From a virus (Duplodnaviria; Heunggongvirae; Uroviricota; Caudoviricetes): DNA of 42,427 bases. Position 1 is the stretch's first letter; every line of letters starts with the position of its first letter. The position numbers and the translations under genes were made by a program. The notes beneath the pieces were generated by a model, which was not told the DNA's origin, made no database searches, and saw only the letters and a list, made by a program, of their open reading frames with translations. Where the stretch lies: the IMG/VR virus record IMGVR_UViG_2563366875_000004, positions 1 to 42,427 of that record. One strand, 5' to 3'. Positions 1 to 16,759 of the stretch are shown here, one piece after another.

Positions 1-1020
1 CTACTTACTGACCACAAGCGGCAAATCCAGTGTTGGCGTGATTTTGGTTTTACGATCGTAAATCAACACCTGATTTTCTGTTTTGTGTCCACTGAAAATT
101 TGTTTGTCGCGACTGCTGCCTTCGTAATCTGAAATCCCTTTGGCTTTTATGTCATGGAAGTTGCACCCAAACGGAACGCCGGCTTTTTGCTCGGCTGCAC
201 GTTTAGCCTGATTCCACCAGTTGTTCAGCGTCTTGGCTATTACCTTCCCGCCTTTGGTTGTGTTGATCACATACTCGCATGTGCCGGAAGATACATTTCG
301 GGCTAACTGGATCGCCGTACGTAATCGCGGAGACCATTCCTTGATTTGTTTAGTGCCGGTCTTGTTTTGCTCAATGTAAATCCCTTTATCCATAATATCC
401 TGCCATTTCAGCTCGAGTACATCACCGAGCCTTGCCGCACAAAGATAGGATATCTCCATTGCAATACGTAACTGTGGAATTGCTTCCGCATATATTGCTG
501 CATACTGTTCATCGGTGATGTAAACAGTACGGGCTTTAAGTGTGAATTTTCTGACTCCTTTGCATGGATTATTTTTCACATACCCACGCTCATATCCCCA
601 TCCGTATACACGGCTCAGACTTGCCAGTTCATGGTTTGCCTGGGTCTTGCTCTCAAGTCCTCGCTTATCCATGAAAATTCTTACCTGTTCAATTTTTACA
701 TTATCAGCAAGCACTTTTCCGAATACTGCCAACAATGCCCTTTGATGTTGCCGATAATCTTTTTGGGTTCGGGGGGCCAGTTCTGTAAATGCAGGGGAGT
801 CCATAAACATGTGCCATAATTTAGCTACTGTCATTATGTTGTGGAGTTTTGCTTTTTCCAGCTCATAATTTTGCCAGACTTTAGCTACGCTGGTTTCCCG
901 CACTCTTCCGAGCCCTATAGTTCTTGTGCTTCCTTCGGGTTTCCATACGTAACTGTAACCATTCGATCTAACACGCGGTGGTAGTGCATTATCTTTTTTG
1001 TTTTTTCTTGGTCTTCCCAT
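1..1020 (-). CDS. int: Phage integrase, tyrosine recombinase family (339 aa)
   Basis: Full ORF ending at window edge; lambdoid integrase-like sequence with C-terminal His/Tyr-containing region; overlapped at its 5' end by an excisionase-like ORF as in typical xis-int pairs. Confidence 0.85.
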   Translation of the reverse strand: MGRPRKNKKDNALPPRVRSNGYSYVWKPEGSTRTIGLGRVRETSVAKVWQNYELEKAKLHNIMTVAKLWHMFMDSPAFTELAPRTQKDYRQHQRALLAVFGKVLADNVKIEQVRIFMDKRGLESKTQANHELASLSRVYGWGYERGYVKNNPCKGVRKFTLKARTVYITDEQYAAIYAEAIPQLRIAMEISYLCAARLGDVLELKWQDIMDKGIYIEQNKTGTKQIKEWSPRLRTAIQLARNVSSGTCEYVINTTKGGKVIAKTLNNWWNQAKRAAEQKAGVPFGCNFHDIKAKGISDYEGSSRDKQIFSGHKTENQVLIYDRKTKITPTLDLPLVVSK

Positions 1021-1240
1021 TGTTCAGCGCCTCAAAATCGGGTTCAGCGGAAACCAGTTCAGGTGCTTTTGGCATCGTAGTCAGTCCGTGTGGAATATCC
1101 CTGCGAAGAACTATTGGTTCGTTTTTAGGACCGATTACAAATGGGATACCGTGCAGCCTTAACTGGTGTTGCTGTTTTGTGTATCGCTCGTATTTCGTGA
1201 TCTCTTGAATCTCTGCTGGCGATAGAGTTAATTCGTACAT
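989..1240 (-). CDS. xis: Excisionase-like small DNA-binding protein (83 aa)
   Basis: Small basic ORF immediately upstream of and overlapping int start by 32 nt; position and size typical of Xis. Confidence 0.55.
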   Translation of the reverse strand: MYELTLSPAEIQEITKYERYTKQQHQLRLHGIPFVIGPKNEPIVLRRDIPHGLTTMPKAPELVSAEPDFEALNNGKTKKKQKR

Positions 1241-1306
1241 GTGGTCACGTGCCTTACAGCATGACCGCCGCCAATATAATTCGGAGACGGCGATCAGGGG
1301 TGAACA

Positions 1307-3787
1307 TTAAAAATCAACCGGATTCGGGATCAGTTTTTGTATCGTGGCTGTAACGTATTTTGCCTGGTGACGGGCATCATCCAGCGCATTGTGGCGCACG
1401 CCTTCAAATGGAATAACTGTTCTGGCATCAAAGTCGATTGTTTTTCCCAGCTCAACGATTGTGCGTACATCGCGATCGTTGTAGTAGCGCCACGGGCAGG
1501 GGATGTCCAGACGTTCGTATGAGGTGCGCAAAATTGCGTTATCGAAAGTTGCACCATTACCCCATACCTGAACGAATTTTTCATCTGAGTATTCGTTGAT
1601 GAACTCCCGAAACCGCGAAAGGGCATCCTTCAGTTTTACCTGGTCTGTTAAAATGGCAGCTCTGGCTTCACTGGACTGCTTCAGCCACCATTCGATGGTT
1701 CCACCGTCAGGAACAGCCCCTGTATTCATTGCGTCAGTCAGACTGATAACGATATAAAATACTGGCCCGATTTCCCCTGTTTGTGGGTCGAAGAAAACCG
1801 CACCAATAACCACGATGGGCGCATTGGTGTTGGTTCCCATTGTTTCAAGGTCGATCATCAGGTGGTACCACACTCTGCTGGTGGATGTGATAACGTGATG
1901 ACCGTTCACCGCAATTAAGGGATCTGCCGTCCCGCCAGTTTCATTATCGCTGGCGTGGTCCTGAGCGCTGCCAGCATTCTCCTTGTGTGGATGTTCAGCG
2001 CCTTCCATTTCCTCCGGATCATTTTCCTGAACTTCAACCTGATTCTCTTCATCGAATGTTTCCTGGTATGTTGCGTCGCCCATCACCGCGCCACAATCAG
2101 GGCAGTTGCCGCCACCGCTCTGACCGCAGGCGGTGCAGACTTTTTCCGATTCCTGTTGCGCTACTGGCTCAGGTTGTTTCGTTTCTGGCTCGTTTTGTAA
2201 CGCATTTTGGCTGTTTTGTTCCGCTTTCTGGTCGTTCTGTTCCGTTTCTTGCTGGTTCTGGTACACAGAATCGCGGGTTTCAATCCCCTTCACCCATTTC
2301 GGATCATTCGGGTCGCTAATCCCTGCAACAAATTCTCCGCGAGAGGCAGCAAGCAACTTATCGGCGTCAGGCTGGCTGATATTGGCTGCCTGCATAATTT
2401 TGTTTACTTCGTCAGCGGTAACTTTTACCGGCTCTGGTTGTGCGGTCGTGTCAGAGGCACCAGTATTTTGTTGTGAACCTGAGTACGTGCCGTTTTTACG
2501 GGCAAAATATTCTTCTTTCGTGATTTCAGTAGCCCCTGCAGCCAGCGCCTTATTCAGACCAGAAAGTTTGTTTGCACGACCATATTTTTCGCCATCCTTA
2601 TCGGTGAAGAGGAAGTAGAACGGCCCCTCACGCTCTACAGATGGTTCAGTTTCCAGCGCGCTTTCATTTTTTTTGGTATCAGATACTTCAGTTTCCACTG
2701 CATCAGTTTGTGCTGCTGACGGCTGGAGAATATCAGCAGTGTTCTGGTCTGTTTCTTCATCCTCAAACACGCCCTTTGTCGCCAGGTATTCAGTGATGTA
2801 TTTGTTCAGCGCCACGGGATCTTTGTGAATGTCGATCGGACGCTCACGGACAAGGCCAAAAATAGTCTGACGGTCGTAGCGAACGGCATCAGGTTGTTTG
2901 CGCATTGATGCGGAAATACGCTTCCAGTCTTCGCGATCTTTGTCGATAACTTCATTTTTTGCCCAGCGATGGATGCTGCCGTCAATGTTTCCGGCATTAA
3001 TATCGCCAGGCCACAGAGCGTAGGCCAGTTCTTCATCCAGCGTTTTCCATGTCTGCTTGTATTCGCGACGAATGGCGGCAGTGGCGGGGTTGATTTTTCC
3101 TGCTGAGTTTTCAGTGTGCTGCCGGTTGACTCTGGCGCGGGCAAGATCAACAACAGACGTGTATTTCCCGGTTTCTTTGCGTTCGGCTTCGCGACGTTTT
3201 TTCCAGGTGCGTAATTCTGTCTGGATCTCAGGCCATTTTGCGCCCGGCTTACATTTATGTTTAACCCACCCGATGGCGAACAGCTTTAGTTCTGAATACA
3301 TGACGTTAACTTCAGGCATTTTCATCAGTGCCTCAACGATATGCCCGTCGAATGTTGCCATGTCCTCCTGCAACAATTCCTGTGCACTAATCACCATATC
3401 AACGGTGATGTTTTCACATGTACCGAACTTAACCAGGACCGCGTTCTGTACTTCAAGGGACAGCTTGTCAAAATTGACGTTCATCGGATCGGATTCTGGT
3501 TCGACCGGAACAAAGGAAGCGGATTCCTCATCCCAGCGGTTTTCCAGCATATATTCGGTATCCCAGGAGTCGATGGCAGGGCGGGGCATGCCGGGTTTAT
3601 CCTCGCAAACAAGAAATTTATAAGCGCAGTCCTGAGCAGCCGGATATTGCTCCAGGAATTGCCAGGTAAATTTGGCTCGGGCGCGGCGTTCGTCGCCGGC
3701 TTCAATGGCAGTAGCTACAGCGACTGCACCTTCTTCCTTTATTGCCTGTTCGTCCGGAATGGCGGCGCAAATAAAGACTTTACTCAT
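1307..3787 (-). CDS. Large exonuclease-family protein (826 aa): unassigned N-terminal region, acidic/Gln-rich linker, CxxC-x7-CxxC zinc ribbon, C-terminal DnaQ-like DEDDh 3'-5' exonuclease domain
   Basis: Exo motifs visible in translation: MIDLETMG (Exo I), WGNGATFDNAIL (Exo II), HNALDDARHQA (Exo III); zinc ribbon CTACGQSGGGNCPDCG; located next to xis where lambdoid phages carry recombination genes. Confidence 0.75.
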   Translation of the reverse strand: MSKVFICAAIPDEQAIKEEGAVAVATAIEAGDERRARAKFTWQFLEQYPAAQDCAYKFLVCEDKPGMPRPAIDSWDTEYMLENRWDEESASFVPVEPESDPMNVNFDKLSLEVQNAVLVKFGTCENITVDMVISAQELLQEDMATFDGHIVEALMKMPEVNVMYSELKLFAIGWVKHKCKPGAKWPEIQTELRTWKKRREAERKETGKYTSVVDLARARVNRQHTENSAGKINPATAAIRREYKQTWKTLDEELAYALWPGDINAGNIDGSIHRWAKNEVIDKDREDWKRISASMRKQPDAVRYDRQTIFGLVRERPIDIHKDPVALNKYITEYLATKGVFEDEETDQNTADILQPSAAQTDAVETEVSDTKKNESALETEPSVEREGPFYFLFTDKDGEKYGRANKLSGLNKALAAGATEITKEEYFARKNGTYSGSQQNTGASDTTAQPEPVKVTADEVNKIMQAANISQPDADKLLAASRGEFVAGISDPNDPKWVKGIETRDSVYQNQQETEQNDQKAEQNSQNALQNEPETKQPEPVAQQESEKVCTACGQSGGGNCPDCGAVMGDATYQETFDEENQVEVQENDPEEMEGAEHPHKENAGSAQDHASDNETGGTADPLIAVNGHHVITSTSRVWYHLMIDLETMGTNTNAPIVVIGAVFFDPQTGEIGPVFYIVISLTDAMNTGAVPDGGTIEWWLKQSSEARAAILTDQVKLKDALSRFREFINEYSDEKFVQVWGNGATFDNAILRTSYERLDIPCPWRYYNDRDVRTIVELGKTIDFDARTVIPFEGVRHNALDDARHQAKYVTATIQKLIPNPVDF

Positions 3788-3867
3788 TTTGTTTTAACCT
3801 CATTACAGATTTAAGGGTGAACAAATCCCTGCCATTGCTGGCATATAAAAATGAAACCGGATATTAA

Positions 3868-4071
3868 TTACGGTGCTGTTTTAAGTCCCGCCGGGATTTC
3901 GTTATTGTCCATGTGAATAACTTTATCAACCGGATAACAGTTGCCGGGAATTTTCTGTTCCGCTGCGGCAGCCATGCATTCTTCCATTGAATCACGTATG
4001 TCAATAATAAGGTCAAGCGGCTCGCCCGTATTAAGAAAAACCGTCAGAACGAGTGCAAATGATGTATTCAT
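3868..4071 (-). CDS. Hypothetical small protein (67 aa), leftward early operon
   Basis: Internal ATG at 4069-4071 preceded by AAAGGA; ATGA overlap with stop of upstream ORF (translational coupling). Confidence 0.45.
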   Translation of the reverse strand: MNTSFALVLTVFLNTGEPLDLIIDIRDSMEECMAAAAEQKIPGNCYPVDKVIHMDNNEIPAGLKTAP

Positions 4072-4256
4072 TGCCAGTATCCTTTTTGCATCAGACGTAA
4101 ACGGGCCAGCATTGAAACAATGCATATTTGATTTAATAGCTCCCGTTCGTGTTTTCTCTTATTAATGGCATCTTCAGTAAATACAGGGTTACTGATTTTG
4201 ACACCAATTTCAAAGCAACCTTCAGACGTATTAACGTTTGGTAATAACGTTTCCAT
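4068..4256 (-). CDS. Hypothetical small protein (62 aa), leftward early operon
   Basis: ATG at 4254-4256 preceded by GAGGA at 8 nt; coupled to downstream ORF. Confidence 0.45.
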   Translation of the reverse strand: METLLPNVNTSEGCFEIGVKISNPVFTEDAINKRKHERELLNQICIVSMLARLRLMQKGYWQ

Positions 4257-4277
4257 TATCGCGTCCTCAACAATGAA

Positions 4278-4431
4278 TTTTGTGATGCGGTGCCTGGTGC
4301 CTCCAGGTGACGTTAACCAGTTAACAATTAACGCCGGATACAGAGAACCCACCCATAAGAACCAATACGGAAGTCAACTGGCCTTTTTAACTGTTCCGCG
4401 TGCGCTGAGCCGCATTCACCGCATCACAAAA
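4278..4431. repeat. Perfect 15-bp inverted repeat pair TTTTGTGATGCGGTG / CACCGCATCACAAAA separated by 124 bp
   Basis: Read directly from sequence (4278-4292 and 4417-4431); internal GTTAAC-containing sub-palindromes; lies in an ORF-free stretch. Confidence 0.6.
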
Positions 4432-4827
4432 TTCACTTTAAAAAGGGCGGACATCAGCCAGCAATGAAAACTGATGCCGCCAAAAGGTAATCAACATGGG
4501 TTGTTGCAGCGGGGTTGTCACTCAAGCGTATGGTCAACCAGACAACCCGGTGCTCCACAGGGGAGGGAGAATAGTACCCCTGCCATACTTACCGCCGCGC
4601 CATTTCGCGGATTGCCACAACCGGAAGCGTACGGTCGAATTAAATTTAACGACAAGCCTCATAGGTGAAGGCCTTCGCCGTACGCTTTCGTGTTATGCCC
4701 TGACTTTTCAGGGATATATCCTTTCAGTAAACTGTCAGTGCCGGATGCTCACCCGTGTCCGGCGCACGACCACACGTGGCAGCGTGTTGGTCTCCATTTT
4801 TAACCCAGAACCCAAATGGAGGATAAA

Positions 4828-5007
4828 ATGTCAGAACAATTTAACCCCCTGCGGAGACCTGCCTCAGCAGCACAACAAGTCGTGCTTGAAGTTGTTCGCG
4901 CGGGTAAGTTGTACGAAAAAACACAACTTTCTGAACTTTTTACACACATGCTTGACCATTACCGTGCTGAGGCGAAACGCCTGGAGCAGGAAAATAAAGC
5001 TCAATAA
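4828..5007 (+). CDS. Small hydrophilic protein (59 aa) encoded convergently to the leftward operon
   Basis: ATG at 4828 preceded by GGAGGA at optimal spacing; protein-like helical composition; strong intrinsic terminator 20 nt downstream. Confidence 0.45.
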   Translation: MSEQFNPLRRPASAAQQVVLEVVRAGKLYEKTQLSELFTHMLDHYRAEAKRLEQENKAQ

Positions 5008-5137
5008 AAGCTGCTTTAATGATCTGAGCCAGTGTGATTGCTGGCTCTTTTTGTGTTGAATCCAGGTCTGCTAATTTTTGACGAAGACAGTCTGCAGCTA
5101 TAACCTGCAAATCTGCAGGTAAATCTTTAAATTCCAT
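4940..5137 (-). CDS. Hypothetical small protein (65 aa); 3' end overlaps the plus-strand small gene and terminator antisense
   Basis: ATG at 5135-5137 preceded by GAGG; either this ORF or the convergent plus-strand ORF may be the real one in the overlap. Confidence 0.3.
   Translation of the reverse strand: MEFKDLPADLQVIAADCLRQKLADLDSTQKEPAITLAQIIKAAFIELYFPAPGVSPQHGNGQACV
5026..5052 (+). terminator. Rho-independent terminator (plus strand only)
   Basis: GAGCCAG-8 nt loop-CTGGCTC stem followed by TTTTTG; on the minus strand the hairpin is followed by no U-tract. Confidence 0.6.
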
Positions 5138-5159
5138 TATTAGCCTCGTTGGTTAGCTA

Positions 5160-5378
5160 TTAACGCGGGTATGTAATCATTCTGGCAATGCTTAATGCCG
5201 CTGCTTTTTCCAGCCTGGTTATATCTTTTTCCAGAGCGGACAGATTTTCAGCCTGCTTAGTCCTGGCTTCATTGGCCCATTTCAGATCCTGCGCTGCATT
5301 AATTTTCTGGCGCATCCACTCATAAAGTTCATCATCGGTATAGTCTGGCGCGATGATGACGGGTTCTCGTTTCTGCAT
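5160..5378 (-). CDS. Hypothetical small protein (72 aa), leftward early operon
   Basis: ATG at 5376-5378 preceded by GAGGAA. Confidence 0.5.
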   Translation of the reverse strand: MQKREPVIIAPDYTDDELYEWMRQKINAAQDLKWANEARTKQAENLSALEKDITRLEKAAALSIARMITYPR

Positions 5379-5407
5379 ACTGATTCCTCGCGGTGCTGTT
5401 TCGCTTA

Positions 5408-5536
5408 TCAGCCGTTAGATTTTGCCGAACTGGAAAGCGCCTGTTTAAACTCACTGAAGCTGAGAGCTTCTTCGCCTTCGGCAAGGCCTTCGAAGTATTC
5501 TTCGTAAGCCTTTTCCATGATTGCGTCGAAATCCAT
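5408..5536 (-). CDS. Small acidic protein (42 aa, MDFDAIMEKAYEEYFEGLAEGEEALSFSEFKQALSSSAKSNG)
   Basis: Not in the 60-aa ORF track; found by hand translation; ATG 8 nt after stop of the upstream ORF; strongly acidic composition. Confidence 0.3.
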   Translation of the reverse strand: MDFDAIMEKAYEEYFEGLAEGEEALSFSEFKQALSSSAKSNG

Positions 5537-5537
5537 A

Positions 5538-5693
5538 TCACTCACCTGAATTTCTTTCCAGCCAGCGATGCGCGCCAGATTCGGTTTTAAACGTTTTGCT
5601 TTTGGTATACGTCATCGCGGTGAATGTGCCGTCCTGGTTGGGAAACACGCCGTACACCAGAGATTCGTTGTTGCCAAGATCGATAGTATCCAT
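5538..5693 (-). CDS. Hypothetical small protein (51 aa), first ORF downstream of pL-like promoter
   Basis: Internal ATG at 5691-5693 preceded by GAGGT; the longer 82-aa form in the track has no RBS. Confidence 0.35.
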   Translation of the reverse strand: MDTIDLGNNESLVYGVFPNQDGTFTAMTYTKSKTFKTESGAHRWLERNSGE

Positions 5694-5770
5694 GCTGACC
5701 TCATTTCCCCTTAACGCCGGGGTAGCGGAACTGTTTGCTGAGAACACCGTGCGGTGTCTTGATGGATGGT

Positions 5771-5822
5771 AATTTAGTTTTCTCATGAAAATTGGTCAAG
5801 TGTTTTTGATGAGAAAACTCAA
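5771..5822 (-). promoter_or_regulatory. pL-like promoter (-35 TTGACC, 17-nt spacer, -10 TAAATT on minus strand) flanked by two operator copies
   Basis: Operators ATGAGAAAACTCAA at 5809-5822 and inverted TCATGAGAAAACTAA at 5774-5788; same 13-mer recurs between repressor and cro. Confidence 0.5.
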
Positions 5823-5885
5823 TATTTAATGCAAAATAAAGCCAATACATTGAAATGTAAGGCTTTAAAATTAGTGAAGGGGGGG

Positions 5886-6344
5886 TTATTGATGTTTGTT
5901 ACGTTTGCGAGCTTCTAGTAGCTCGGTGAATAGGCGATTAAAATTCTCAACGCGGGCACGGAGTTCGCTGATTTGTGCTTGCTGCTCTGATTTTGGAAGT
6001 GCGCGATACAATCGCAACATCTCCAACTCATCTTCCGATAAGTCTAAGGCGCTGTTGAGTGCAACTGGTGGATCTGGTGTTTTATCCTCGTCACCAAACA
6101 GTATCCAAGTTGGTGAACATTGCAATACCTCAGCCAGGCGATGCAAATTTTGCCCGCGCGGGGCTGTATGGTCGCTTTCCCATAGTGAAATTGATGAGCC
6201 AGATACGCCAGCAGCTTTGCTTAAATCGTTTTGACTTAAACCAACCTGTTTGCGTCTTTCTCTAATTCGTTGACCTAAAGTTTTCTCGTTCATATTTAGA
6301 TATCTTAATAACCCTTGACTTGAGATTCCTTGAGTGATTACCAT
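5886..6344 (-). CDS. Prophage repressor, HTH XRE/CI-type, without a LexA-like peptidase domain (152 aa; alternative start at 6293)
   Basis: HTH motif QVGLSQNDLSKAAGVSGSSISLWE; divergent from cro-like gene; C-terminal part is helical and lacks a Ser/Lys autocleavage module. Confidence 0.8.
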   Translation of the reverse strand: MVITQGISSQGLLRYLNMNEKTLGQRIRERRKQVGLSQNDLSKAAGVSGSSISLWESDHTAPRGQNLHRLAEVLQCSPTWILFGDEDKTPDPPVALNSALDLSEDELEMLRLYRALPKSEQQAQISELRARVENFNRLFTELLEARKRNKHQ

Positions 6345-6356
6345 TGAGAAAACTCA
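6315..6356 (+). promoter_or_regulatory. pR-like promoter (-35 TTGACT) with operator TGAGAAAACTCA directly downstream
   Basis: Operator 6345-6356 abuts the repressor start codon and lies upstream of the cro RBS GGAGGGG. Confidence 0.5.
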
Positions 6357-6370
6357 ACTTTGGAGGGGTG

Positions 6371-6598
6371 ATGTTTAAATCAGACGTAATTAATTTTTAT
6401 GGGACGAAAGCCAAAGTAGCGAAAGCTGCTGGTGTTGATCCATCTGCTGTTTCTCAATGGGGAGAACTGGTTCCTGAAGGTCGCGCGATGCGCCTGCAAG
6501 AGGCATCTGGCGGGGAGCTTCAGTACGACCCCAAAGTTTATGACGAATATCGTAAGGCAAAGCGGGCGGGGCGGTTGAACAATGAAAATCACCCCTGA
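6371..6598 (+). CDS. cro: Cro-like / YdaS-like HTH regulator (75 aa)
   Basis: ATG at 6371 after GGAGGGG; small HTH protein divergent from repressor; the track ORF begins at an upstream TTG. Confidence 0.75.
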   Translation: MFKSDVINFYGTKAKVAKAAGVDPSAVSQWGELVPEGRAMRLQEASGGELQYDPKVYDEYRKAKRAGRLNNENHP

Positions 6599-7133
6599 AC
6601 AGGTTTGTGAGGCTCTGGATGCCTGGGTATGCCGACCAGGAATGACACAGGAGCAGGCGACGATATTAATCACGGAAGCATTCTGGGCTCTGAAAGAACG
6701 CCCGAACATTGATGTTCAACGCGTCACGTTTGATGATGGCGCGGTTGATCAACGGGCACTGGGCGTTAACCGGGTGAAGATATTCGAACGCTGGAAAGCT
6801 ATCGACACCAGGGATAAGCGTGAAAAATTCACGGCGCTGATTCCGGCAATTATGGAGGCTATCCGGATCAGTGATTTCAGGTTGTATCGTGAAATTACTG
6901 ACGGAAAAAGCATTACGTACATGATCGCCGGGTTAAACAAAGAATATGGCGATGTGGTGGAGTCCGGGCTGCTTTTTGCGGATCCAGCTGTTGTGGAACG
7001 TGAGACTGACGAGCTTATAGAAAAAGCTATTGCTTTCAAGCATGCGTATCGTCAGCAATACCAACATTACTTTGCAGATAAACAAATATCTGTCTGGGGT
7101 TCGTATGAGTATCGATGCACTACGATGGGCTAA
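6582..7133 (+). CDS. YdaT-like protein (CII functional analogue family), 183 aa
   Basis: Follows cro with overlap; segment IFERWKAIDTRDKREKFTALIPAIMEAI resembles the conserved YdaT core as I recall it. Confidence 0.6.
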   Translation: MKITPEQVCEALDAWVCRPGMTQEQATILITEAFWALKERPNIDVQRVTFDDGAVDQRALGVNRVKIFERWKAIDTRDKREKFTALIPAIMEAIRISDFRLYREITDGKSITYMIAGLNKEYGDVVESGLLFADPAVVERETDELIEKAIAFKHAYRQQYQHYFADKQISVWGSYEYRCTTMG

Positions 7134-8599: not shown

Positions 8600-8631
8600 T
8601 TTGAGAAGTAATTTTTACCGGGAGGAAATTT

Positions 8632-9402: not shown

Positions 9403-9417
9403 TTGCCGGAGGCGCTT

Positions 9418-9822
9418 ATGGCAAAAGTATTTACACAAGAAGAGCGGGAAAAAATTAAGGGGCAGATTGTTGAACTTGTACGTCTGAGCGGTCGCGAGAC
9501 GTTACGGCAACTGGAAGCGAAAACAGGTGCGACAAGATATCTGATGAGTGTTCTCGCCAGAGAGCTGGTTGCCAGTGGCGATGTATACAATTCTGGCTAC
9601 GGGTTATTTCCGTCTGAACAGGCGCGTAAGGACTGGCAAAACGCCCGCAAAAAACTATCGAGGGCAAAGGCGAAGAAACCGGTTGTGGTTGCTCCGGACC
9701 TTATCTGGTCATTACCAGACGGAGAAATACGCCGCTACGACAGGCGTCAGAACATGATTTGCCGTGAGTGCCGGGAAAGCGAAGTTATGCAGCGTATACT
9801 AACGTTCTATTGGGGAATATAG
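9418..9822 (+). CDS. Hypothetical protein (134 aa), possible winged-helix fold
   Basis: ATG at 9418 after GGAGG; track ORF starts at an upstream TTG. Confidence 0.55.
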   Translation: MAKVFTQEEREKIKGQIVELVRLSGRETLRQLEAKTGATRYLMSVLARELVASGDVYNSGYGLFPSEQARKDWQNARKKLSRAKAKKPVVVAPDLIWSLPDGEIRRYDRRQNMICRECRESEVMQRILTFYWGI

Positions 9823-9837
9823 CCACTAAATAAGGTA

Positions 9838-10149
9838 ATGAACCAAATGAACACGGAAAAAGCGAAAACGCAGCTCAGGATAATGCTTGCCGGTCCGGCT
9901 GCGAGTTATACGACACATTCACCAGCCATAAAAAAGGTTCTTGATGAACTGGAAGCCAAAGACAAGCGCATTGCAGAACTGGAGGCAAGGGAAGTCCAGC
10001 TACCGGCTGGCTATGAACTTCGATATGGACACCCGATAAATGCTGATGAGCGCCATGTCATGATACCTAAGGAAGATGGCAGCTGGATTTATCTGGCTGA
10101 TTTAGAGCGCGCACTACGTGTTGCTGGCATTCGCATCAAAGGAGAGTGA
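9838..10149 (+). CDS. Hypothetical protein (103 aa), ends with the shared IKGE junction
   Basis: C-terminal AGIRIKGE followed by AAAGGAGAGTGA, the same junction seen again at 10986-10998. Confidence 0.5.
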   Translation: MNQMNTEKAKTQLRIMLAGPAASYTTHSPAIKKVLDELEAKDKRIAELEAREVQLPAGYELRYGHPINADERHVMIPKEDGSWIYLADLERALRVAGIRIKGE

Positions 10150-10150
10150 G

Positions 10151-10507
10151 GTGGAAATAAAACCAGAAGATGAGTTAAGTAATATTGTTTTATTTCCGGT
10201 AAAAGAAGATGACCCACGTAATCAGGTTAATTTTCTTTATGAGCCATCGGAAAGACCATATTGCCATCACGCTTCTGTCCGGGTTGATGAAAAAGAGCGT
10301 CAGGTCCGCTGTAAAATCTGCGGTGCAGTTGTGGAGCCGTTTGACTGGATGCTCTCTGTGGCGAAAAGAGAAACCAGACTGGCAGATGATGTAAGGCTAT
10401 TGCGTCAGGAGGAACGGGAAAGGCGGAAAAATATAGAAAAGCTAATTCAGATTGAGCGTAACGCAAAAGCGCGGATACGCAGAGCGACAAAATCCAGAAC
10501 TGAATAA
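10151..10507 (+). CDS. Hypothetical protein with Cys/His cluster (GTG start, about 118 aa)
   Basis: GTG after GGAG RBS embedded in the preceding gene's end; CHH...CKICG motif. Confidence 0.45.
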   Translation: MEIKPEDELSNIVLFPVKEDDPRNQVNFLYEPSERPYCHHASVRVDEKERQVRCKICGAVVEPFDWMLSVAKRETRLADDVRLLRQEERERRKNIEKLIQIERNAKARIRRATKSRTE

Positions 10508-10602
10508 TTAAATTTAGCACTGTTAAAAATTTAATCCTTAACCGGAGGGATTTCTGTACCCTCAGAACATCAGGAGGCCGCCTGAAAGGGCAGTAATGAA
10601 AA

Positions 10603-10998
10603 ATGACTGAATTAACAAAAGAGCAATTAATCGAAGAAGCTAAATTAAAAATAGCGATTGCGAAATGCCACCCTAATTCAGAGATGGCACGGGTAGAGGG
10701 TGAGTTATTCAAAATTGCACTGGCATCGCTGGAAGCGGAGCCTGTTGGTGAATTTTATGAGTATAAGCCGGGCGGCTGGTATCAGCATTCGGCTGGAGAT
10801 AAAGCGCCAAAGTGGATACAACTCTACGCTGTGCCGCCAGCGCTCGCAGCACCTGAAGGACTGGTTAAAGCAGTGCGCTTTTATGAGCAGGTTAAGCGTG
10901 AGAATCCGCCAGCTGAAACCGGAGCATGGAAAGACGCTGTTGATTGGGTGCTCAAAGAGGCTTGCCAGGCTGTAAACATTGGCATCAAAGGAGAGTGA
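10603..10998 (+). CDS. Ea22-like hypothetical protein (131 aa)
   Basis: Shares motif ALASLEAEPV with the N-terminus of the ORF at 11220 and the IKGE C-terminal junction with the ORF at 9838. Confidence 0.55.
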   Translation: MTELTKEQLIEEAKLKIAIAKCHPNSEMARVEGELFKIALASLEAEPVGEFYEYKPGGWYQHSAGDKAPKWIQLYAVPPALAAPEGLVKAVRFYEQVKRENPPAETGAWKDAVDWVLKEACQAVNIGIKGE

Positions 10999-10999
10999 T

Positions 11000-11218
11000 A
11001 TGCCTACATTATTCAGAAAAGAATATCCGCGAAAAAGTAGAGCGACAGAATTTTTGTTTCTCATTCTGTTTATCGTGTTGCTGATACCGATATCCCCGCT
11101 AATTTTTGTCTGGGCAATCGGGAAAATAATTGAGCCAGTTATTGAATTGTATACCGACGTTGTATGGGCGCCGTTCAACACACTGCACAACAAAATCAAC
11201 CCATATAAGGAAAGCTGA
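11000..11218 (+). CDS. Small single-pass membrane protein (72 aa)
   Basis: ATG after AAAGGAGAGTGA; hydrophobic stretch FLFLILFIVLLIPISPLIFVWAIG. Confidence 0.45.
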   Translation: MPTLFRKEYPRKSRATEFLFLILFIVLLIPISPLIFVWAIGKIIEPVIELYTDVVWAPFNTLHNKINPYKES

Positions 11219-11219
11219 T

Positions 11220-11753
11220 ATGACCACTATTACCAGAGAAAACGCGGAGATTAAATCATTCATCACTGGTTTCCTGAGCGACCCGGCGCACGATAACCAA
11301 TCTTCAGACAGCCTGCTTGCCAATGTGTTTCGTATCGCACTGGCATCGCTGGAAGCAGAGCCAGTGGCGTGGAAGGCAACCTTCACGCAAATTGACAATG
11401 AATATAATACGTTCACTGCTCTGTATTCTGACAAAGCAGAAGTCGAACGGTGGGGGCGACTGCATGAAATAGGTGACTTTCGGGCAGAAATAACACCGCT
11501 TTACGCAGCGCCGTCAGCGCCGGTAATTCCGGATGGTTGGATAAGCTGTAGTGAGCGAATGCCGGAAAAGAACCAGAACGTACTTATTTCGGTGAATTTC
11601 GATAGCTCTCTGGTTGAACCGCTAATATGCTCCGCACGCTATACCGGAAGCACATTCCGGCGAGGAGATGCAACGATTAAACCGGGTAATGGTATTGAGC
11701 AGGCAACTCACTGGATGCCGCTACCGGAACCACCGCAGGAGGTGAATCAATGA
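11220..11753 (+). CDS. Ea22-like N-terminus plus DUF551-like C-terminal domain protein (177 aa)
   Basis: ATG after AAGGAA; C-terminal W...MPLPEPP pattern. Confidence 0.55.
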   Translation: MTTITRENAEIKSFITGFLSDPAHDNQSSDSLLANVFRIALASLEAEPVAWKATFTQIDNEYNTFTALYSDKAEVERWGRLHEIGDFRAEITPLYAAPSAPVIPDGWISCSERMPEKNQNVLISVNFDSSLVEPLICSARYTGSTFRRGDATIKPGNGIEQATHWMPLPEPPQEVNQ

Positions 11754-11833
11754 CCAGGCCTGAAGCATTCACAACGGTAGGAATTGCAATGGCGGTGGCG
11801 CTGGTGGTGCATTCGATTTGCCGCTGGGGGTGA
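11750..11833 (+). CDS. Putative 27-aa hydrophobic peptide (MTRPEAFTTVGIAMAVALVVHSICRWG)
   Basis: ATGA overlap with stop of the preceding gene; GGAGG RBS 8 nt upstream; followed by a hairpin and U-rich tract. Confidence 0.25.
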   Translation: MTRPEAFTTVGIAMAVALVVHSICRWG

Positions 11834-11875
11834 TAAGTGGAATAGTACGGGGTATCGTGCGCCCCGCAGATTTGA

Positions 11876-12049
11876 TTATTTATTTGGGGAGATAATGTCC
11901 TGAAGCGTGACGATTACTTCTTCATCTGTATCTATATTTCGGAGTTGATATGTAATGTCGTCGTTTCTAATAATTTGCACTACAAGCCATTCTCCATTTT
12001 TTTCACGTAAGTGAACAGTACTGTTTTCCGATATACCATGAACGGTCAT
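11876..12049 (-). CDS. Hypothetical small protein (57 aa) in an AT-rich island
   Basis: Hand-translated (below track threshold); weak RBS; convergent with the early-right operon. Confidence 0.25.
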   Translation of the reverse strand: MTVHGISENSTVHLREKNGEWLVVQIIRNDDITYQLRNIDTDEEVIVTLQDIISPNK

Positions 12050-12199
12050 TTTTATACCTTTTGTGTTGTGTGAAGGAGCAGTATAGTCAGAAATGAGACA
12101 AGTGAAAGGGGATAGAAAGTAATAGTTTGTTTTTGTAGAATTGCTGCGGGTGCTTGAGGCTATCTGCCTCAGGCATGAACACCAAAAGGCAGATAGAGA

Positions 12200-12303
12200 A
12201 AAGCCCCAGTTAACATTACGCGTCCTGCAAGACGCTTAACATTAATCTGAGGCCATATCTATGCGACACATAGAGATTAGCCTCTTACGGACCGAAAGGT
12301 CAA
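12200..12303 (-). ncRNA. Sok-like antisense RNA with its promoter (approximate bounds)
   Basis: Minus-strand -35 TTGACC (12298-12303) and -10 TAATCT (12274-12279), 18-nt spacer, reading antisense across the mok start; 3' end not defined. Confidence 0.4.
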
Positions 12304-12320
12304 GGAGAAGCAGGCTATGA
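12261..12320 (+). CDS. mok-like upstream leader ORF (19 codons) coupled to hok
   Basis: ATG 12261; stop TGA overlaps the hok ATG (CTATGA). Confidence 0.3.
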   Translation: MRHIEISLLRTERSRRSRL

Positions 12321-12472
12321 AGCAGCAAAAGGCGATGTTAATCGCCCTGATCGTCATCTGTTTAACCGTCATAGTGACGGCACTGGTAACGAGGAAAGAC
12401 CTCTGCGAGGTACGAATCCGAACCGGTCAGACGGAGGTCGCTGTCTTCACAGCTTACGAACCTGAGGAGTAA
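12317..12472 (+). CDS. hok: Hok/Gef-family type I toxin (51 aa)
   Basis: MKQQKAMLIALIVICLTVIVTALVTRKDLCEVRIRTGQTEVAVFTAYEPEE closely matches Gef/HokC as recalled; GGAG RBS; mRNA 5' segment 12146-12159 is complementary to 3' segment 12522-12536 (fbi-like). Confidence 0.8.
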   Translation: MKQQKAMLIALIVICLTVIVTALVTRKDLCEVRIRTGQTEVAVFTAYEPEE

Positions 12473-12542
12473 GAGACCAGGCGAGGGAGAAATCCCTCGC
12501 CACCTCTGATGTGTCAGGCATCCTCAACGCACCCGCACTTAA

Positions 12543-12567
12543 CCCGCTTCGGCGGGTTTTTGTTTTT
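12543..12567 (+). terminator. Rho-independent terminator of the hok mRNA
   Basis: CCCGC-TTCG-GCGGG stem-loop followed by TTTTTGTTTTT. Confidence 0.6.
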
Positions 12568-12692
12568 ATTTTCAACGCGTTTGAAGTTCTGGATGGTGCC
12601 GGAATAGAATCAAAAATACTTAAGTAGCGCGCAGGGAGAAGAGGGATGGACCCCAAATGGGGGAGTGCTATTTATCTGGAAGGATTCTGTTG

Positions 12693-12953
12693 ATGAAAAT
12701 CGAAGAATTACGTGAAATTTTTAGTGAAGATGGCCTCTATACTGTGCGCGTTGAGAATGGCGCTATTGTCAGCCACTGCCGTATTAAATGTTTACAGTCT
12801 CAACAAAGGAAGAGTGGAACTGCGTTAATTCATTTGGTGGATGGGCTTGTGACGGATGGTTTTATTTTGCGTGCAAATGAATTTGTCACATCGTTGCCGT
12901 CTCTGAAAGAAGCTGGGATTAAGGCTGGTTTTTCTGCTTTTGAAGATGTGTGA
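12693..12953 (+). CDS. Hypothetical protein (86 aa), nin-like region
   Basis: ATG at 12693 after GGA; AT-rich codon usage suggests a foreign insert. Confidence 0.45.
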   Translation: MKIEELREIFSEDGLYTVRVENGAIVSHCRIKCLQSQQRKSGTALIHLVDGLVTDGFILRANEFVTSLPSLKEAGIKAGFSAFEDV

Positions 12954-13019
12954 ATTCAACTACAATTTAGCGCAGGGCTGAACCCCTGCTGAGTAACACT
13001 GTGCCACCGGAGAAAGCCG

Positions 13020-13298
13020 ATGGCGCAAAATTCCAGACTACACAATTCTGATAATTCAGCCGTCTTTGCCAGCAGGCATGGGCGGCGCTCTCATGCATTT
13101 AAATCTGACTGGTTCCAGCATGACCCCTGCACTGAAGAACAAGCTGAATGGCTAATTCAGTGCTACCGCAGACACGGATACGAGATTAAGAAAGCCCTCA
13201 GCCTCGATTATCGTCACTGGATAATCTACGTCAGGCTCCCTTATTCCGAACGCCCACCACGCCCGTCCCGCACATTCCAGCAACGGATCTGGAGGTAA
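13020..13298 (+). CDS. Hypothetical protein (92 aa), nin-like region
   Basis: GGAGAAAG RBS upstream of ATG. Confidence 0.5.
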   Translation: MAQNSRLHNSDNSAVFASRHGRRSHAFKSDWFQHDPCTEEQAEWLIQCYRRHGYEIKKALSLDYRHWIIYVRLPYSERPPRPSRTFQQRIWR

Positions 13299-13299
13299 C

Positions 13300-14349
13300 G
13301 TGCGGGTATTACTTCGACCTGTTCCGGTACCGGAACTCGGGCTGGTGGTCCTTAAGCCTGGTCGTGAATCCATGCAGGTATTTCATAACCCTCGAGTGCT
13401 GGTGGAGCCTGAACCGAAAAGCATGCGCGGTCTGCCGTCCGGAGTCGTCCCTGCCGTCCGCCAGCCGCTGGTGGAGGATAAATCATTACTGCCATTTTTC
13501 AGCAATGAGCGTGTGATTCGTGCTGCTGGCGGCGCTGGTGCACTGTCTGACTGGCTGTTGCGTCATGTCAAATCCTGCCAGTGGCCTCATGGTGACTATC
13601 ATCACAGTGAAATCGTCATACATCGTTATGGTACCGGCGCGATGGTGTTGTGCTGGCACTGCGACAACCAGCTGCGTGACCAGACTTCCGAATCACTCGG
13701 GCAACTTGCTCACCAAAACCTGTCAGCATGGATGATTGACGTCATCCGTCACGCAATGAATGGCACACAGGAGCGGGAATTATCGCTGGCTGAATTATCC
13801 TGGTGGGCAGTCTGCAATCAGGTGGCGGACGCGCTACCGGAGACAGTATTACGTCGTTCTCTGAGGTTACGTGCGGAAAAAATCCGCTCGGTGTACCGCG
13901 AAAGCGACATCATGCCGGGAGAGCAGACAGCCACCAGCATACTGAAGCAGCGCACAAAAAATATTGTGCTATCGCCTCACGCCCACCAGCAACAGAACTC
14001 ACCGCAGGAAAAGGCGGTGGTCAGCATTGCTGTTGATCCTGAGTCTCCGGAATCTTTCATGAAGCGGCCTAAACGTCGCCGTTGGGTAAATGAGAAATAC
14101 ACGCGCTGGGTGAAGACACAGCCGTGTGCGTGTTGCGGTAAGCCAGCCGACGATCCCCATCACCTGATTGGTCATGGTCAGGGCGGAATGGGGACAAAAG
14201 CCCACGATATTTTCACGCTACCGCTGTGTCGGGAGCATCACAACGAGCTTCATGCGGATCCGCTGGCGTTCGAAGAAAAGCATGGTTCCCAGGTTGATTT
14301 AATTTTTCGTTTTCTTGATCACGCCTTTGCAACCGGCGTGCTCGGGTAA
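13300..14349 (+). CDS. DUF968-family (YdfU-like) protein with C-terminal HNH-like Cys/His motif
   Basis: GTG start after GGAGG; C-terminus CACCGKPADDPHHLIGHG...CREHHNELH. Confidence 0.65.
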   Translation: MRVLLRPVPVPELGLVVLKPGRESMQVFHNPRVLVEPEPKSMRGLPSGVVPAVRQPLVEDKSLLPFFSNERVIRAAGGAGALSDWLLRHVKSCQWPHGDYHHSEIVIHRYGTGAMVLCWHCDNQLRDQTSESLGQLAHQNLSAWMIDVIRHAMNGTQERELSLAELSWWAVCNQVADALPETVLRRSLRLRAEKIRSVYRESDIMPGEQTATSILKQRTKNIVLSPHAHQQQNSPQEKAVVSIAVDPESPESFMKRPKRRRWVNEKYTRWVKTQPCACCGKPADDPHHLIGHGQGGMGTKAHDIFTLPLCREHHNELHADPLAFEEKHGSQVDLIFRFLDHAFATGVLG

Positions 14350-14361
14350 AAGAGGTTACTG

Positions 14362-14820
14362 ATGCGTATAGAGTTTGTTTTGCCTTACCCGCCGACGGTG
14401 AACACCTACTGGCGACGTCGTGGCAGCACATATTTTGTATCAAAAGCCGGTGAGCGTTATCGCCGTGATGTGGCGCTTATTGTTCGCCAGCAGCGACTGA
14501 AATTAAACCTGTCCGGAAGGCTGGCGATAAAGATTATTGCAGAGCCACCGGATAAGCGCCGTCGTGACTTGGACAATATTCTGAAAGCACCACTGGATGC
14601 ACTGACACATGCGGGGTTGCTTATCGACGACGAGCAGTTTGATGAAATCAATATTGTGCGCGGACTGCCTGTTCCTGGTGGTCGGTTGGGTGTGAAGATT
14701 TACGAAATTACAGGTGATAACGATGGCGCGAGATATTCAGCAGGTTATGGAGCGGTGGGGAGCATGGGCTGCAAACAATCACGAAGATGTGTCATGGGCG
14801 TCAATCGCTGCTGGTTTTAA
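14362..14820 (+). CDS. rusA: RusA-family Holliday junction resolvase (with C-terminal extension overlapping Q)
   Basis: N-terminal [19 protein letters not shown] and [26 protein letters not shown] are RusA hallmarks. Confidence 0.8.
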
Positions 14821-15109
14821 AGGATTAATCCCGCCGAAAGTGAAATCACGCCCTCAGTGTTCTGATGATGATGCAATGATAATTTGTGGCTGTATGGCCC
14901 GGTTGAACAAGAAAAATCAGGATTTGCACGATTTGTTGGTGGATTATTACGTAGGTGGAATGACTTTTATGGGGCTGGCACGAAAGCATGGGTGTTCGGA
15001 TACCTGTATTGGCAAGCGCCTGCAGAAAGCGGAAGGGGTTATTGATGGCATGTTGATGATGCTTGATATCCGACTGGAGATGGACCGATACGTAGAACGA
15101 ATTATGTAG
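14723..15109 (+). CDS. Short Q-like late antiterminator (QuuD-like, 128 aa)
   Basis: ATG after AGGTGA; size and position immediately upstream of a pR'-like promoter and terminator. Confidence 0.65.
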
Positions 15110-15113
15110 GCGC

Positions 15114-15143
15114 TTGACCAGACACATTGTCCGGGGCTATATT
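15114..15143 (+). promoter_or_regulatory. pR'-like late promoter (-35 TTGACC, 18-nt spacer, -10 TATATT)
   Basis: Directly after the Q stop; followed about 65 nt later by a terminator, as for lambda pR'/6S RNA/tR'. Confidence 0.4.
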
Positions 15144-15206
15144 TCCGACGCAACCGCAAAATCGGTTGTCGGGATTAGCACCCCGGATGTTTACGGAGCG
15201 ATATGA

Positions 15207-15226
15207 GACGCGCCCGCGTCTTTTTT
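15207..15226 (+). terminator. tR'-like intrinsic terminator
   Basis: GACGC-tetraloop-GCGTC followed by TTTTTT. Confidence 0.5.
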
Positions 15227-15390
15227 CATATCGTTTGCACAGTCACATTCGCGATTAATGGCGGGCTGTGTGGGGGAGCCGAAAGGCTCGCCGGTTTCCG
15301 TACCCGGTAGTGCTAACCCCGCACAGTTCGCCACCACGATGATTAGCACCTGACGGTGGCGATAATGTCCAAATGTACGGAGTTATCGTT

Positions 15391-15954
15391 ATGACCACTC
15401 AGATTTCTGTCGAAACTCTTTCCCCAATTACACACAACCAAATTCCCGTTATCACTACCGAGTTACTGGCACAGCTTTACGGTACAGATTCAGATAACAT
15501 CAAAAAGAATTATTCGCGTAACGCAGATCGTTTTTATGAAGGTAAGCACTTCTACAAAGTGATTGGTGATGAACTAAAGAATTTGCGGGTGACTTTAAGT
15601 CACTCACAAAATCCCATCTCTCCCAAAACCCGCTCGCTCATACTCTGGACAGAACGCGGAGCAGCCCGCCACGCAAAAATGCTGGAAACCGATCAGGCAT
15701 GGGAGGTATTCGAAAAACTGGAAGATTGTTATTTCAGCCGAAAACAACCAGCTGCAGCACAAAACACATCTATCGAAAATGATGGATGCGCATTACTGAT
15801 CCACTTCGATAAACACGGTCAGGTCGACTTCACGGAAAAAGTACCCGCCGATGCGATGGTATGCACTCTGGAACGGTTCAAATTTTATCTGGAACAACGC
15901 GGCTGGATCGTTGCCCGTAAAGAACAACTGGTGGAATGGTTGATGCGGTTTTAG
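15391..15954 (+). CDS. ORF6N/Rha-like DNA-binding domain protein (candidate antirepressor or regulator), 187 aa
   Basis: N-terminal pattern ITTELLAQLYGTDSDNIKKNYSRNADRFYEGKHFYKV plus LILWTERGAARHAKMLETDQAWEVFEKLE resembles ORF6N-type domains as recalled; GGAG RBS. Confidence 0.55.
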   Translation: MTTQISVETLSPITHNQIPVITTELLAQLYGTDSDNIKKNYSRNADRFYEGKHFYKVIGDELKNLRVTLSHSQNPISPKTRSLILWTERGAARHAKMLETDQAWEVFEKLEDCYFSRKQPAAAQNTSIENDGCALLIHFDKHGQVDFTEKVPADAMVCTLERFKFYLEQRGWIVARKEQLVEWLMRF

Positions 15955-15999
15955 GTGCGACAGCCCCACCATCTTTATAGTAGTGGGGCTGAAAGTTCA

Positions 16000-16545
16000 T
16001 TACTGAGTGACTTTTAGCCCACTAAATTTAAAAATATACTCTGGTTCTGTTACTTTTCCATAGAGGGTCATGCTTGATTCAAGGATGCAGTCCTTTGAAT
16101 TAGGGATAAAACGCCCTGAAAATGAAACTATATCACCAGGTTTTAATTCAGAGGCCACCGTGAAAATTTCAGAGTCAGGGCTGATAAGAGTATGATGACG
16201 AGAATCGGAAAATGCGTTATTCCAGGTTTTAACTTCAATGTCTGGTGCTATCTCCAAAGCCAACACGCCGTAACCATCACTATTGGCAGAAACAGTTTTT
16301 ACAGTACCAATCCAGTTTTTAACTTTTTTATCTTTTCTTAAGGTTGCGCAAACCGCTTTGTCTCGTTTTGCTTTTATTCCGCCCAGCTTCATGTCGTTAT
16401 CAACACCTTTAGCTGATGAAATTGCGTTTGAGACCGCCTCGATGAACTTTTCCTGCTGCTCAGGCATCTGGTAAGCAAAGGCTGGTGTCTGAAATATGGT
16501 AACCGAAAACGCTATGGTCATGATTTTTGTAAAAACACTATTCAT
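16000..16545 (-). CDS. Secreted (Sec signal peptide) protein of unknown function, 181 aa; AT-rich cargo gene
   Basis: Signal peptide MNSVFTKIMTIAFSVTIFQTPAFA with AFA cleavage motif; opposite strand to the late operon; lower GC than neighbours. Confidence 0.65.
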   Translation of the reverse strand: MNSVFTKIMTIAFSVTIFQTPAFAYQMPEQQEKFIEAVSNAISSAKGVDNDMKLGGIKAKRDKAVCATLRKDKKVKNWIGTVKTVSANSDGYGVLALEIAPDIEVKTWNNAFSDSRHHTLISPDSEIFTVASELKPGDIVSFSGRFIPNSKDCILESSMTLYGKVTEPEYIFKFSGLKVTQ

Positions 16546-16737
16546 ATTTTTCCCTAAAACAAGAAATAATGAAACAAAGAGCGCTCAAATATAAGCTTGC
16601 TTAGATTACCCATCCCTTAAACCCTTATCAACAGTATGTATTTGGGTTGTATTGTTCATCATGTGTGTTTAGGGCTTTACGATCGTAAAAAGTTGAATAT
16701 CCTGTTAAGAGTTGTTACTTCGCCACACAGCTTAAAC

Positions 16738-16759
16738 CCGCCGCCAGGCGGTTTTTTTT
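16738..16759 (+). terminator. Intrinsic terminator
   Basis: CCGCC-GCCA-GGCGG followed by T8. Confidence 0.55.

Follow-up and report, generated by a model that had tools for sequence, protein, structure and literature searches.

Does a 14-base pair (bp) palindrome that occurs twice in identical form within one prophage mark two sites of a single regulator, or two unrelated sequences that have come together by accident? The question arises from a stretch of 42,427 nucleotides (nt) in the IMG/VR record IMGVR_UViG_2563366875_000004 (Caudoviricetes; positions 1 to 42,427; hereafter, the window), which is a lambdoid prophage. The original prediction, made from the letters alone, pointed to the perfect palindrome TTTACGATCGTAAA within the 3' end of the integrase gene (site 1) and in a distant intergenic region (site 2). 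It proposed a dimeric regulator or a nuclease as the binding protein and drew attention to the central GATC as a Dam site. Here, we consider it probable that site 2 is the element bound by the antiterminator Q at the late promoter PR' and that site 1 is a coincidental run of integrase codons. Site 2 is read in this way because it holds a fixed position in the promoter, is paired with Q class by class, and covaries with a helix of Q.

Both exact copies were located in the window. The position predicted for site 2 (16676-16689) was correct, and that for site 1 was one base off (48-61 instead of 49-62). Site 1 lies in the minus-strand integrase open reading frame (ORF), and site 2 lies 131 nt upstream of the start of a minus-strand ORF at 16000-16545. 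No further copy was found in the window at up to two mismatches, and no similarity between the flanks of the two copies was found beyond the 14 bp. The number of 14-bp perfect palindromes in the window is ordinary (3, with 2.8 expected), and two of the three are identical. Such a duplicated palindrome was obtained in 0 of 3000 first-order Markov simulations of the window, and the base composition of the window predicts 1.5e-4 occurrences per 42 kb for a given 14-mer of this make-up. The random-model figures therefore agree with the earlier view that the duplication is unlikely by chance. The sole 16-bp perfect palindrome of the window is a different one, GTTCCGGTACCGGAAC, at 13321-13336 inside the DUF968 gene (13300-14349).

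Among the matches listed for IMG/VR, TTTACGATCGTAAA was concentrated in late promoters and in this integrase family, with scattered singletons in addition. About 20 unrelated contexts were present among the first 120 stretches listed, as expected for a collection of such size. It had been stated beforehand that a motif widespread in unrelated contexts, or belonging to an ordinary repeat, would speak against a functional site; this was not what was seen, since two contexts dominate. A terminal inverted repeat of a repetitive or mobile element was also considered and rejected: the flanks are unrelated, and site 1 lies in coding sequence and site 2 in a promoter module.

Site 2 occupies the position of PR', a sigma-70-type promoter that lies between the Q gene and the late (lysis and structural) genes. 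On its 3' side follow, in this order, the hexamer TATCCT, a conserved transcribed block, a hairpin with a run of eight T residues, tRNA genes, lysis genes, and the terminase gene. The left half-site, TTTACG, doubles as a -35-like hexamer, with a 16-nt spacer before the -10 hexamer (TTTACG-N16-TATCCT). When window positions 15960-16960 were compared by megablast with Escherichia coli genomes and phages (phiP27, SfII, SfIV, the cdtI phage, and Stx2 phages were matched), all matches started at ~16695-16703, directly to the right of the palindrome. Alignment with E. coli E10 and phiP27 demonstrated that the position of the palindrome is held there by other dyads, TGCGTACGCA and GGAATTCC. These are followed by an A-run, a TAnnnT hexamer, the block GTTAAGAGT(G/T)GTTACT.CGCCACACAGC, and a hairpin with a T-run.

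The closest experimentally studied counterpart is the PR' of phage VT2-Sakai. There, the 14-mer is identical and begins 47 nt past the Q stop codon; a TATCAT hexamer stands 8 nt further on, ahead of the same conserved block. In the StxS study, the primary PR' start of the Sakai Stx2a prophage was placed by differential RNA sequencing (dRNA-seq) 258 nt upstream of the 3' end of the terminator tR' (PMC7547250). The Sakai start was anchored on this published distance; counting 258 nt back from the tR' T-run of VT2-Sakai leads to an A ~7 nt after TATCAT. Because the Sakai start was transferred by homology, the -10 hexamer of the window is taken to be TATCCT, with a predicted start at about A16710 and the dyad at -34 to -21, where it would extend over -35 and into the spacer, of which it would take up the upstream half. 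By this homology with Sakai, the assignment of PR' has experimental support. The conserved GGTTAC(T/A) block contains TACTTC in the window (16716-16721) or TACATT in Sakai at +7 to +12, and the former was assigned by eye as a candidate sigma-dependent pause element.

The hairpin and T-run after PR' may be a leaky terminator or part of the Q-utilization region. Such an element is also present at 1985-2009 of locus L459. In Sakai, where the reported end of the transcript is +258, the equivalent element occupies ~+25 to +50. Several other roles for site 2 itself were tried and rejected. An RNA or DNA hairpin or a terminator is not suggested by perfect palindromes, which are loopless and are followed here by an A-run rather than a T-run, and in other dyad classes the arms are AT-rich or very short. 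In an Rfam scan, only the two tRNAs scored above threshold. An operator of the 181-amino acid (aa) protein gene or of the ORF6N-domain gene, both of which lie between Q and PR' in the window, does not fit either, since the dyad is present in most loci without these genes, including those in which it lies 47 nt after Q. A functionless mosaic junction was rejected on account of the allele-specific covariation with Q.

For the comparison of late promoters, 123 sequences were assembled, namely, 119 IMG/VR loci retrieved by a pattern scan that used the conserved block only, 3 other loci, and the window. At one fixed position, these sequences carry dyads that fall into discrete classes: A (TTTACGATCGTAAA), A2 (TTTACAATCGTAAA), B (GCGTACGC), C (GCGGTCCGC), and D (TGTTATAACA). 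Classes A and A2 share the form TTTAC(G/A)ATCGTAAA. The center of the longest dyad fell 15.0-15.5 nt before the -10 hexamer in 47 of the 58 distinct upstream sequences. The clusters formed by the Q proteins at 80% identity corresponded to the dyad class without exception in 102 loci (38/38 for C, 31/31 for B, 21/21 for A and A2 together, and 12/12 for D). The Q stop codon lay 26 to 3779 nt upstream of the module, and the genes inserted between them varied. As a linkage control, the gene directly upstream of Q was examined; one 80% cluster of it, with 71 loci, was spread over all classes. Other neighboring genes were likewise mixed over the dyad classes, and the class-pure ones were single-class clusters with few loci. 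Variants of the spacer and of the -10 hexamer right beside the dyad were common to classes B and C.

A similar result was obtained when loci were retrieved by the Q protein alone. Of 80 loci collected in this separate way (82-99% identity), 74 had the exact 14-mer downstream of Q, which corresponds to 74 of the 76 informative loci. The distance from Q to the 14-mer in these 74 loci was 47, ~500, 782-889, 1064, 1726, or 3016 nt; in the window, it is 1567 nt. Two loci had TTTACGTACGTAAA instead of TTTACGATCGTAAA, and in 4 of the 80, neither the dyad nor the variant was found in the downstream sequence at hand (60-1914 bp). A comparison of 31 distinct contexts showed no relationship among the 30 nt that precede the dyad, whereas the dyad was invariant or nearly so. 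The two variant loci, L424 (~6953-6966) and L436 (~6183-6196) of IMG/VR, have the center changed from GATC to GTAC, so that the palindrome is still perfect. In the compared loci, the sequence specificity of the dyad was matched to the cognate Q allele.

The window Q is ~80% identical to the Q proteins of 933W, VT2-Sakai, and BP-4795. It also matched Q21, the antiterminator of phage 21 (PDB 6jnx/6p18), with an E value of 2.5e-7 in phmmer and of 5.6e-11 with a profile, over residues 8-89 only, that is, the N-terminal 80 aa. The profile alignment reached up to the first helix of the DNA-binding motif, which in Q21 contacts the binding element (PMC6606751). Among the Q classes, the N-terminal ~55 residues were conserved and residues ~83-106, the counterpart of the DNA-binding helices of Q21, were class specific; the class-varying segment contains the helix that follows. 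A single-sequence AlphaFold2 model of Q reached a predicted local distance difference test (pLDDT) score of 41.5, too low for a fold comparison.

The putative helix-turn-helix of Q varied together with the dyad. Every Q paired with TTTACGATCGTAAA and its GATC center had the helix SDTCIGKRL. The two Q proteins paired with the GTAC-centered TTTACGTACGTAAA (L424 and L436) had SDGYIGKKL or SDGTIGKRL, and the change looks compensatory in both protein and site. The helix SDCWVGRLL was found with TTTACAATCGTAAA (a dyad also given as TTTACAATCG), SDGTIRKEL with GCGTACGC, SEKAIRIEM with GCGGTCCGC, and SLNQVVIRL with TGTTATAACA. Such covariation of helix and dyad would be expected of a Q that reads the two half-sites, center included, with two helix-turn-helix units.

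Site 1 behaved differently from site 2 in being conserved as a protein motif and not as DNA. Its codons, which encode I-Y-D-R-K, lie within the integrase stretch SGHKTENQVLIYDRKTK (also given as SGHKTENQVLIYDRK and GHKTENQVLIYDRK), in the C-terminal His...Tyr box of an integrase with a PF00589 domain. The spacing from His to Tyr (GHK-x8-Y, His-x9-Tyr) is that of lambda Int H333/Y342, and we take the Tyr of site 1 to be the catalytic tyrosine. In the catalytic box II of lambda-family integrases (GHK...Y-R/D-D-R), site 1 is the same motif with nothing unusual about it, being one of several synonymous spellings. Among ~76 integrase alleles retrieved by protein (95-100% protein identity), the palindrome was broken by synonymous TAC>TAT and/or CGT>CGC/CGA changes in 15 (~20%), a rate like that of neighboring third positions. 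Integrases of 76-78% identity have VYDRK and lack the palindrome. No TAnnnT hexamer was found 8 nt from either end of site 1, nor was the conserved transcribed block. Site 1 thus appears to be a chance spelling of I-Y-D-R-K by this integrase allele, not conserved beyond coding.

The two sites are also inherited separately. This integrase and site 1 are present in six E. coli prophages (M9, P393-F10, bR_120_Kylling, MS 119-7, A35, and PEC240) whose Q proteins are of other types, 221-273 aa long; across the >20 kb that separate int from the lysis or terminase genes, no second copy of the dyad was found in them at ≤2 or 3 mismatches. The opposite combination occurs in E. coli STEC005, which has a class-A Q, the ORF6N gene, and the dyad, together with a different integrase at ompW and no second copy, and the complete VT2-Sakai genome (60.9 kb) contains a single copy of TTTACGATCGTAAA, at PR'. 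In IMG/VR, 46 contigs with the class-A PR' pattern and 64 with the integrase 17-mer had none in common; the 46-contig pattern describes the window type of PR' and covers neither the 933W type nor other variants. Across the seven E. coli prophages and VT2-Sakai, then, the sites were not inherited together as those of a two-site operator would be. The two copies are best described as unrelated, independently assorting modules whose pairing is, as far as sequence comparison tells, a mosaic coincidence. What is rare is that a common integrase allele spells this 14-mer; that such an allele stands next to a class-A Q module is ordinary lambdoid mosaicism.

In the mechanism proposed for site 2, two helix-turn-helix domains of Q would read the half-sites TTTACG and CGTAAA, centered 15 nt upstream of the -10 hexamer, while RNA polymerase that had started at PR' would be held at a pause near the promoter. 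After joining the polymerase, Q would let it transcribe past the hairpin/T8 terminator and on into the genes for tRNAs, lysis, and structural proteins. The occurrence of site 1 beside site 2 in one genome would have resulted from mosaic recombination that joined an integrase module to a Q/PR' module. With regard to the original prediction, the dimeric-regulator site is retained for site 2 and dropped for site 1. The single two-copy system that it implied does not agree with copies that assort independently among prophages and with an integrase copy not conserved beyond its codons.

Several points weigh against this reading of site 2 and site 1. Q and the dyad lie close together, and their covariation might in principle stem from a third factor in tight linkage with them. 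For Q21, the structurally characterized relative, the element is a direct repeat placed between -35 and -10, not an inverted repeat over -35 (PMC6606751). The first hairpin and T-run matches a position that the Sakai PR' transcript reads through (PMC7547250), so that which structure of the window is tR' is uncertain, and the pause element is a tentative assignment. Finally, a second exact copy is expected by chance at only ~1.5e-4 in 42 kb, which leaves a residual possibility that site 1 functions through Q binding.

The last point leads to the view that both copies are sites of one dimeric DNA-binding protein, Q or another regulator, the integrase copy serving as a second operator, a decoy, or a roadblock and coupling late transcription to integrase expression or excision. 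The exact identity over 14 bp and the simulations favor it, and a Q that recognized the dyad on naked DNA would recognize the integrase copy too. We nevertheless regard it as very unlikely, since the six prophages examined that carry this integrase all have a single copy and Q proteins of other types, STEC005 and VT2-Sakai have Q and dyad without the integrase copy, the palindrome is lost in ~20% of near-identical integrase alleles and in all those at 76-78% identity, and site 1 has neither an adjoining -10 hexamer nor the conserved transcribed block. Somewhat different is the suggestion that site 2 is a functional promoter dyad not read by Q, namely, a plain -35 region or the operator of a Q-linked factor. 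Here, TTTACG with its 16-nt spacer and TATCCT does make a plausible -35/-10 pair, the direct repeats of Q21 lie further downstream, and Q binding at site 2 is deduced from comparison. However, classes with a poor -35 match still have a dyad there. Apart from single-class clusters with few loci, no other gene cluster was class-pure; the gene upstream of Q was mixed, and in loci of the 933W type, the dyad begins only 47 nt after the end of Q. Moreover, the fine-scale covariation sits in the helix-turn-helix of Q itself, and in Sakai, PR' is constitutively active in lysogens (PMC7547250), which speaks against a repressor. Taken together, these points make a promoter dyad not read by Q unlikely.

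The central GATC invites another explanation, in which the palindrome is a Dam target or a restriction-type target (CGATCG, PvuI-like) and acts twice as a methylation switch or nuclease site. GATC lies within CGATCG and is kept in 74 of 76 class-A loci. Close relatives nevertheless have GTAC with matching changes in Q, the other classes (B to E) have unrelated centers, and the integrase copy is not conserved. In the window, GATC occurs 129 times and CGATCG 11 times, which is not unusual, and no nuclease or methylase gene adjoins either site. We therefore regard a methylation or nuclease target as highly improbable. The central GATC noted in the original prediction is not conserved in the element, and nothing points to the nuclease that this prediction mentioned. 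To the idea that both copies are meaningless chance, we attach almost no credence; the 14-mer does occur in ~20 unrelated IMG/VR contexts among the matches listed, but site 2 is invariant at a fixed promoter position despite unrelated flanks and covaries with Q.

Site 2 as a Q-binding element can be set beside several known systems. It most resembles the PR' of 933W and VT2-Sakai (Sp5), the source of the StxS RNA and of stx2 transcription, with an identical dyad, 8 nt to a TAT..T -10 hexamer, a Q of ~80% identity, and the G(A/T)TAAGAGTGGTTAC block, after which comes a hairpin with a T-run; the mapped start fits a dyad at -34 to -21. The window differs from VT2-Sakai in that its dyad lies 1567 nt, rather than 47 nt, after Q, with the anti-repressor and secreted-protein genes between them, and in the cargo downstream, which is tRNA-Thr/Gly and lysis genes in the window and tRNA-Ile/Arg/Arg and stx2 in VT2-Sakai. 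The Q utilization (qut) site of Sakai has been called only "predicted" (PMC7547250). No description of the dyad or of a Q933 binding site was found in the literature searched; older subscription work on the qut sites of 933W, H-19B, and 82 lay outside that search. The site 2 sequence itself is that of a well-studied Stx2 phage promoter, and what seems to be new, judging from the literature searched, is an allele-specific dyad matched to the recognition helix of Q.

Like the Q-binding element (QBE) of Q21 (6P18, 6JNX), site 2 lies in cis, within the upstream portion of PR', and would be read by two helix-turn-helix-type protomers of a homologous Q, with a centre-to-centre subsite spacing of 8 bp. 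Q21 has direct TGAGCA repeats near -21 and -13, between -35 and -10 (PMC6606751), and the half-sites of the window are inverted and lie at -34 to -21. Site 2 therefore lacks both the direct repeats and the location of a Q21-type QBE and shares with it the Q21-homologous protein. The window Q is 31 aa shorter than Q21; its motif appears to be a plain helix-turn-helix, whereas that of Q21 is a helix-turn[loop]helix. The arrangement at the PR' of lambda is similar in having a promoter-embedded Q site (QBE, or qut), a promoter-proximal pause, and read-through of tR'. However, the lambda Q family is unrelated (the window Q matched PF06530 only in Pfam), and lambda has a single site with a -35-like element and no dyad. 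The Dam-sensitive sites of pap and agn43 likewise have a GATC central in the probable binding site of a regulator; unlike in those systems, the GATC is not conserved among the homologous sites, and the sequence gives no sign of methylation-dependent switching.

In general, the pair of palindromes is a coincidence without importance, and the interest lies in the intergenic copy, which marks a probable DNA recognition site of Q933-type antiterminators. These regulators activate late genes and Shiga toxin 2 in many E. coli prophages. A palindrome of 14 bp that spans -34 to -21, with a handful of alleles that each have their own recognition helix, would differ from the Q-DNA complexes solved for lambda and 21. 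The match of dyad and helix amounts to a simple specificity code, which would allow prediction of which Q activates which late promoter in poly-lysogens and would be relevant to differences in toxin output between Q alleles. A bolder version can be put forward as a rather unlikely speculation. In it, Q933-type antiterminators, a short branch of the Q21 family, would load from a symmetric, allele-specific palindrome over -35 whose center (in class A, the Dam site) is read by the first residues of the recognition helix; Q loading could then sense the methylation or replication state of the DNA, and extra copies such as that in the integrase gene could titrate Q. If this were true, expression of late genes and Shiga toxin 2 could sense the methylation state of phage DNA, the class-A center being a Dam site.

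Table 1. Features of the window that bear on the two palindrome copies, with their genetic surroundings
Feature	Coordinates	Strand	Evidence or remark
Tyrosine integrase gene, 339 aa	1..1020	-	PF00589 over residues 168-323
Site 1, integrase codons ATT TAC GAT CGT AAA (I-Y-D-R-K)	49..62	-	Within 1..1020
DUF4224 excisionase-like gene, early genes, DUF968, RusA			Present in the window
Antiterminator Q gene, 131 aa from GTG 14714, probably ATG 14723 start	14714..15109	+	PF06530, E=2.5e-52; phrog_79
ORF6N-domain anti-repressor gene, inserted between Q and PR'	15373..15954	+	PF10543; phrog_2379
181-aa signal-peptide protein gene (moron), between anti-repressor gene and PR'	16000..16545	-	
Site 2 dyad TTTACG/AT/CGTAAA, ~-34 to -21 of PR'; proposed Q-binding element	16676..16689	+	
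-10 hexamer TATCCT of PR'	16698..16703	+	8 nt after the dyad, always so in related loci
Predicted transcription start A16710 and conserved initial transcribed region AGAGTTGTTACTTCGCCACACAGC	16710..16737	+	Homology to Sakai PR' start; high conservation
G+C-rich hairpin and T8, intrinsic terminator-like, downstream of PR'	16738..16760	+	Kept in related loci
tRNA-Thr(TGT) and tRNA-Gly(TCC) genes, between PR' and lysis genes	16957..17110	+	Rfam
Lysis genes (holin/endolysin), P27-type terminase, structural genes			Downstream of PR'

The remaining observations concern the prophage setting (Table 1). The integrase family was found in 750 of 5426 complete E. coli genomes, where annotated homologues adjoin yccA, and related prophages occupy the attachment site on the yccA side. 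The first three letters of the window are the integrase stop codon (1-3), and many IMG/VR prophage records with this integrase begin at that point too; the palindrome at 49-62 is present in those records as well. Because the window begins at the integrase stop codon, attL and the host junction lie outside it. No complete E. coli genome that covers 80% of the first 20 kb of the window was found.

Upstream of the late promoter, the RusA ORF of the window (152 aa, 14362-14820) extends ~100 nt into the Q gene (14714-15109) in another frame. RusA in related prophages is ~120 aa long and overlaps Q by a few bases only, and the long ORF of the window may reflect a lost stop codon or a frameshift. The arrangement with an ORF6N anti-repressor gene between Q and PR' is the same in E. 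coli STEC005. The moron insert (15960-16675) had no megablast match in the 5426 E. coli genomes or in the phage collection, and the 181-aa protein that it encodes had no Pfam or PHROG match. The signal peptide of this protein is MNSVFTKIMTIAFSVTIFQTPAFA, followed by YQ. Its counterparts in IMG/VR loci L151 and L424 share 100% and 91% identity with it, respectively, and the gene is missing from most loci with the same dyad.

Downstream of the tRNA genes, a weak Rfam match to the CyaR/RyeE small RNA was obtained at 17334-17403 (31 bits, below the gathering score of 47). Just upstream of tRNA-Thr, at 16867-16894, there is a promoter-like TTGAAA-N16-TAATAT, which is analogous to the separate tRNA promoter that has been reported to lie between tR' and stx2 in Sakai (PMC7547250).

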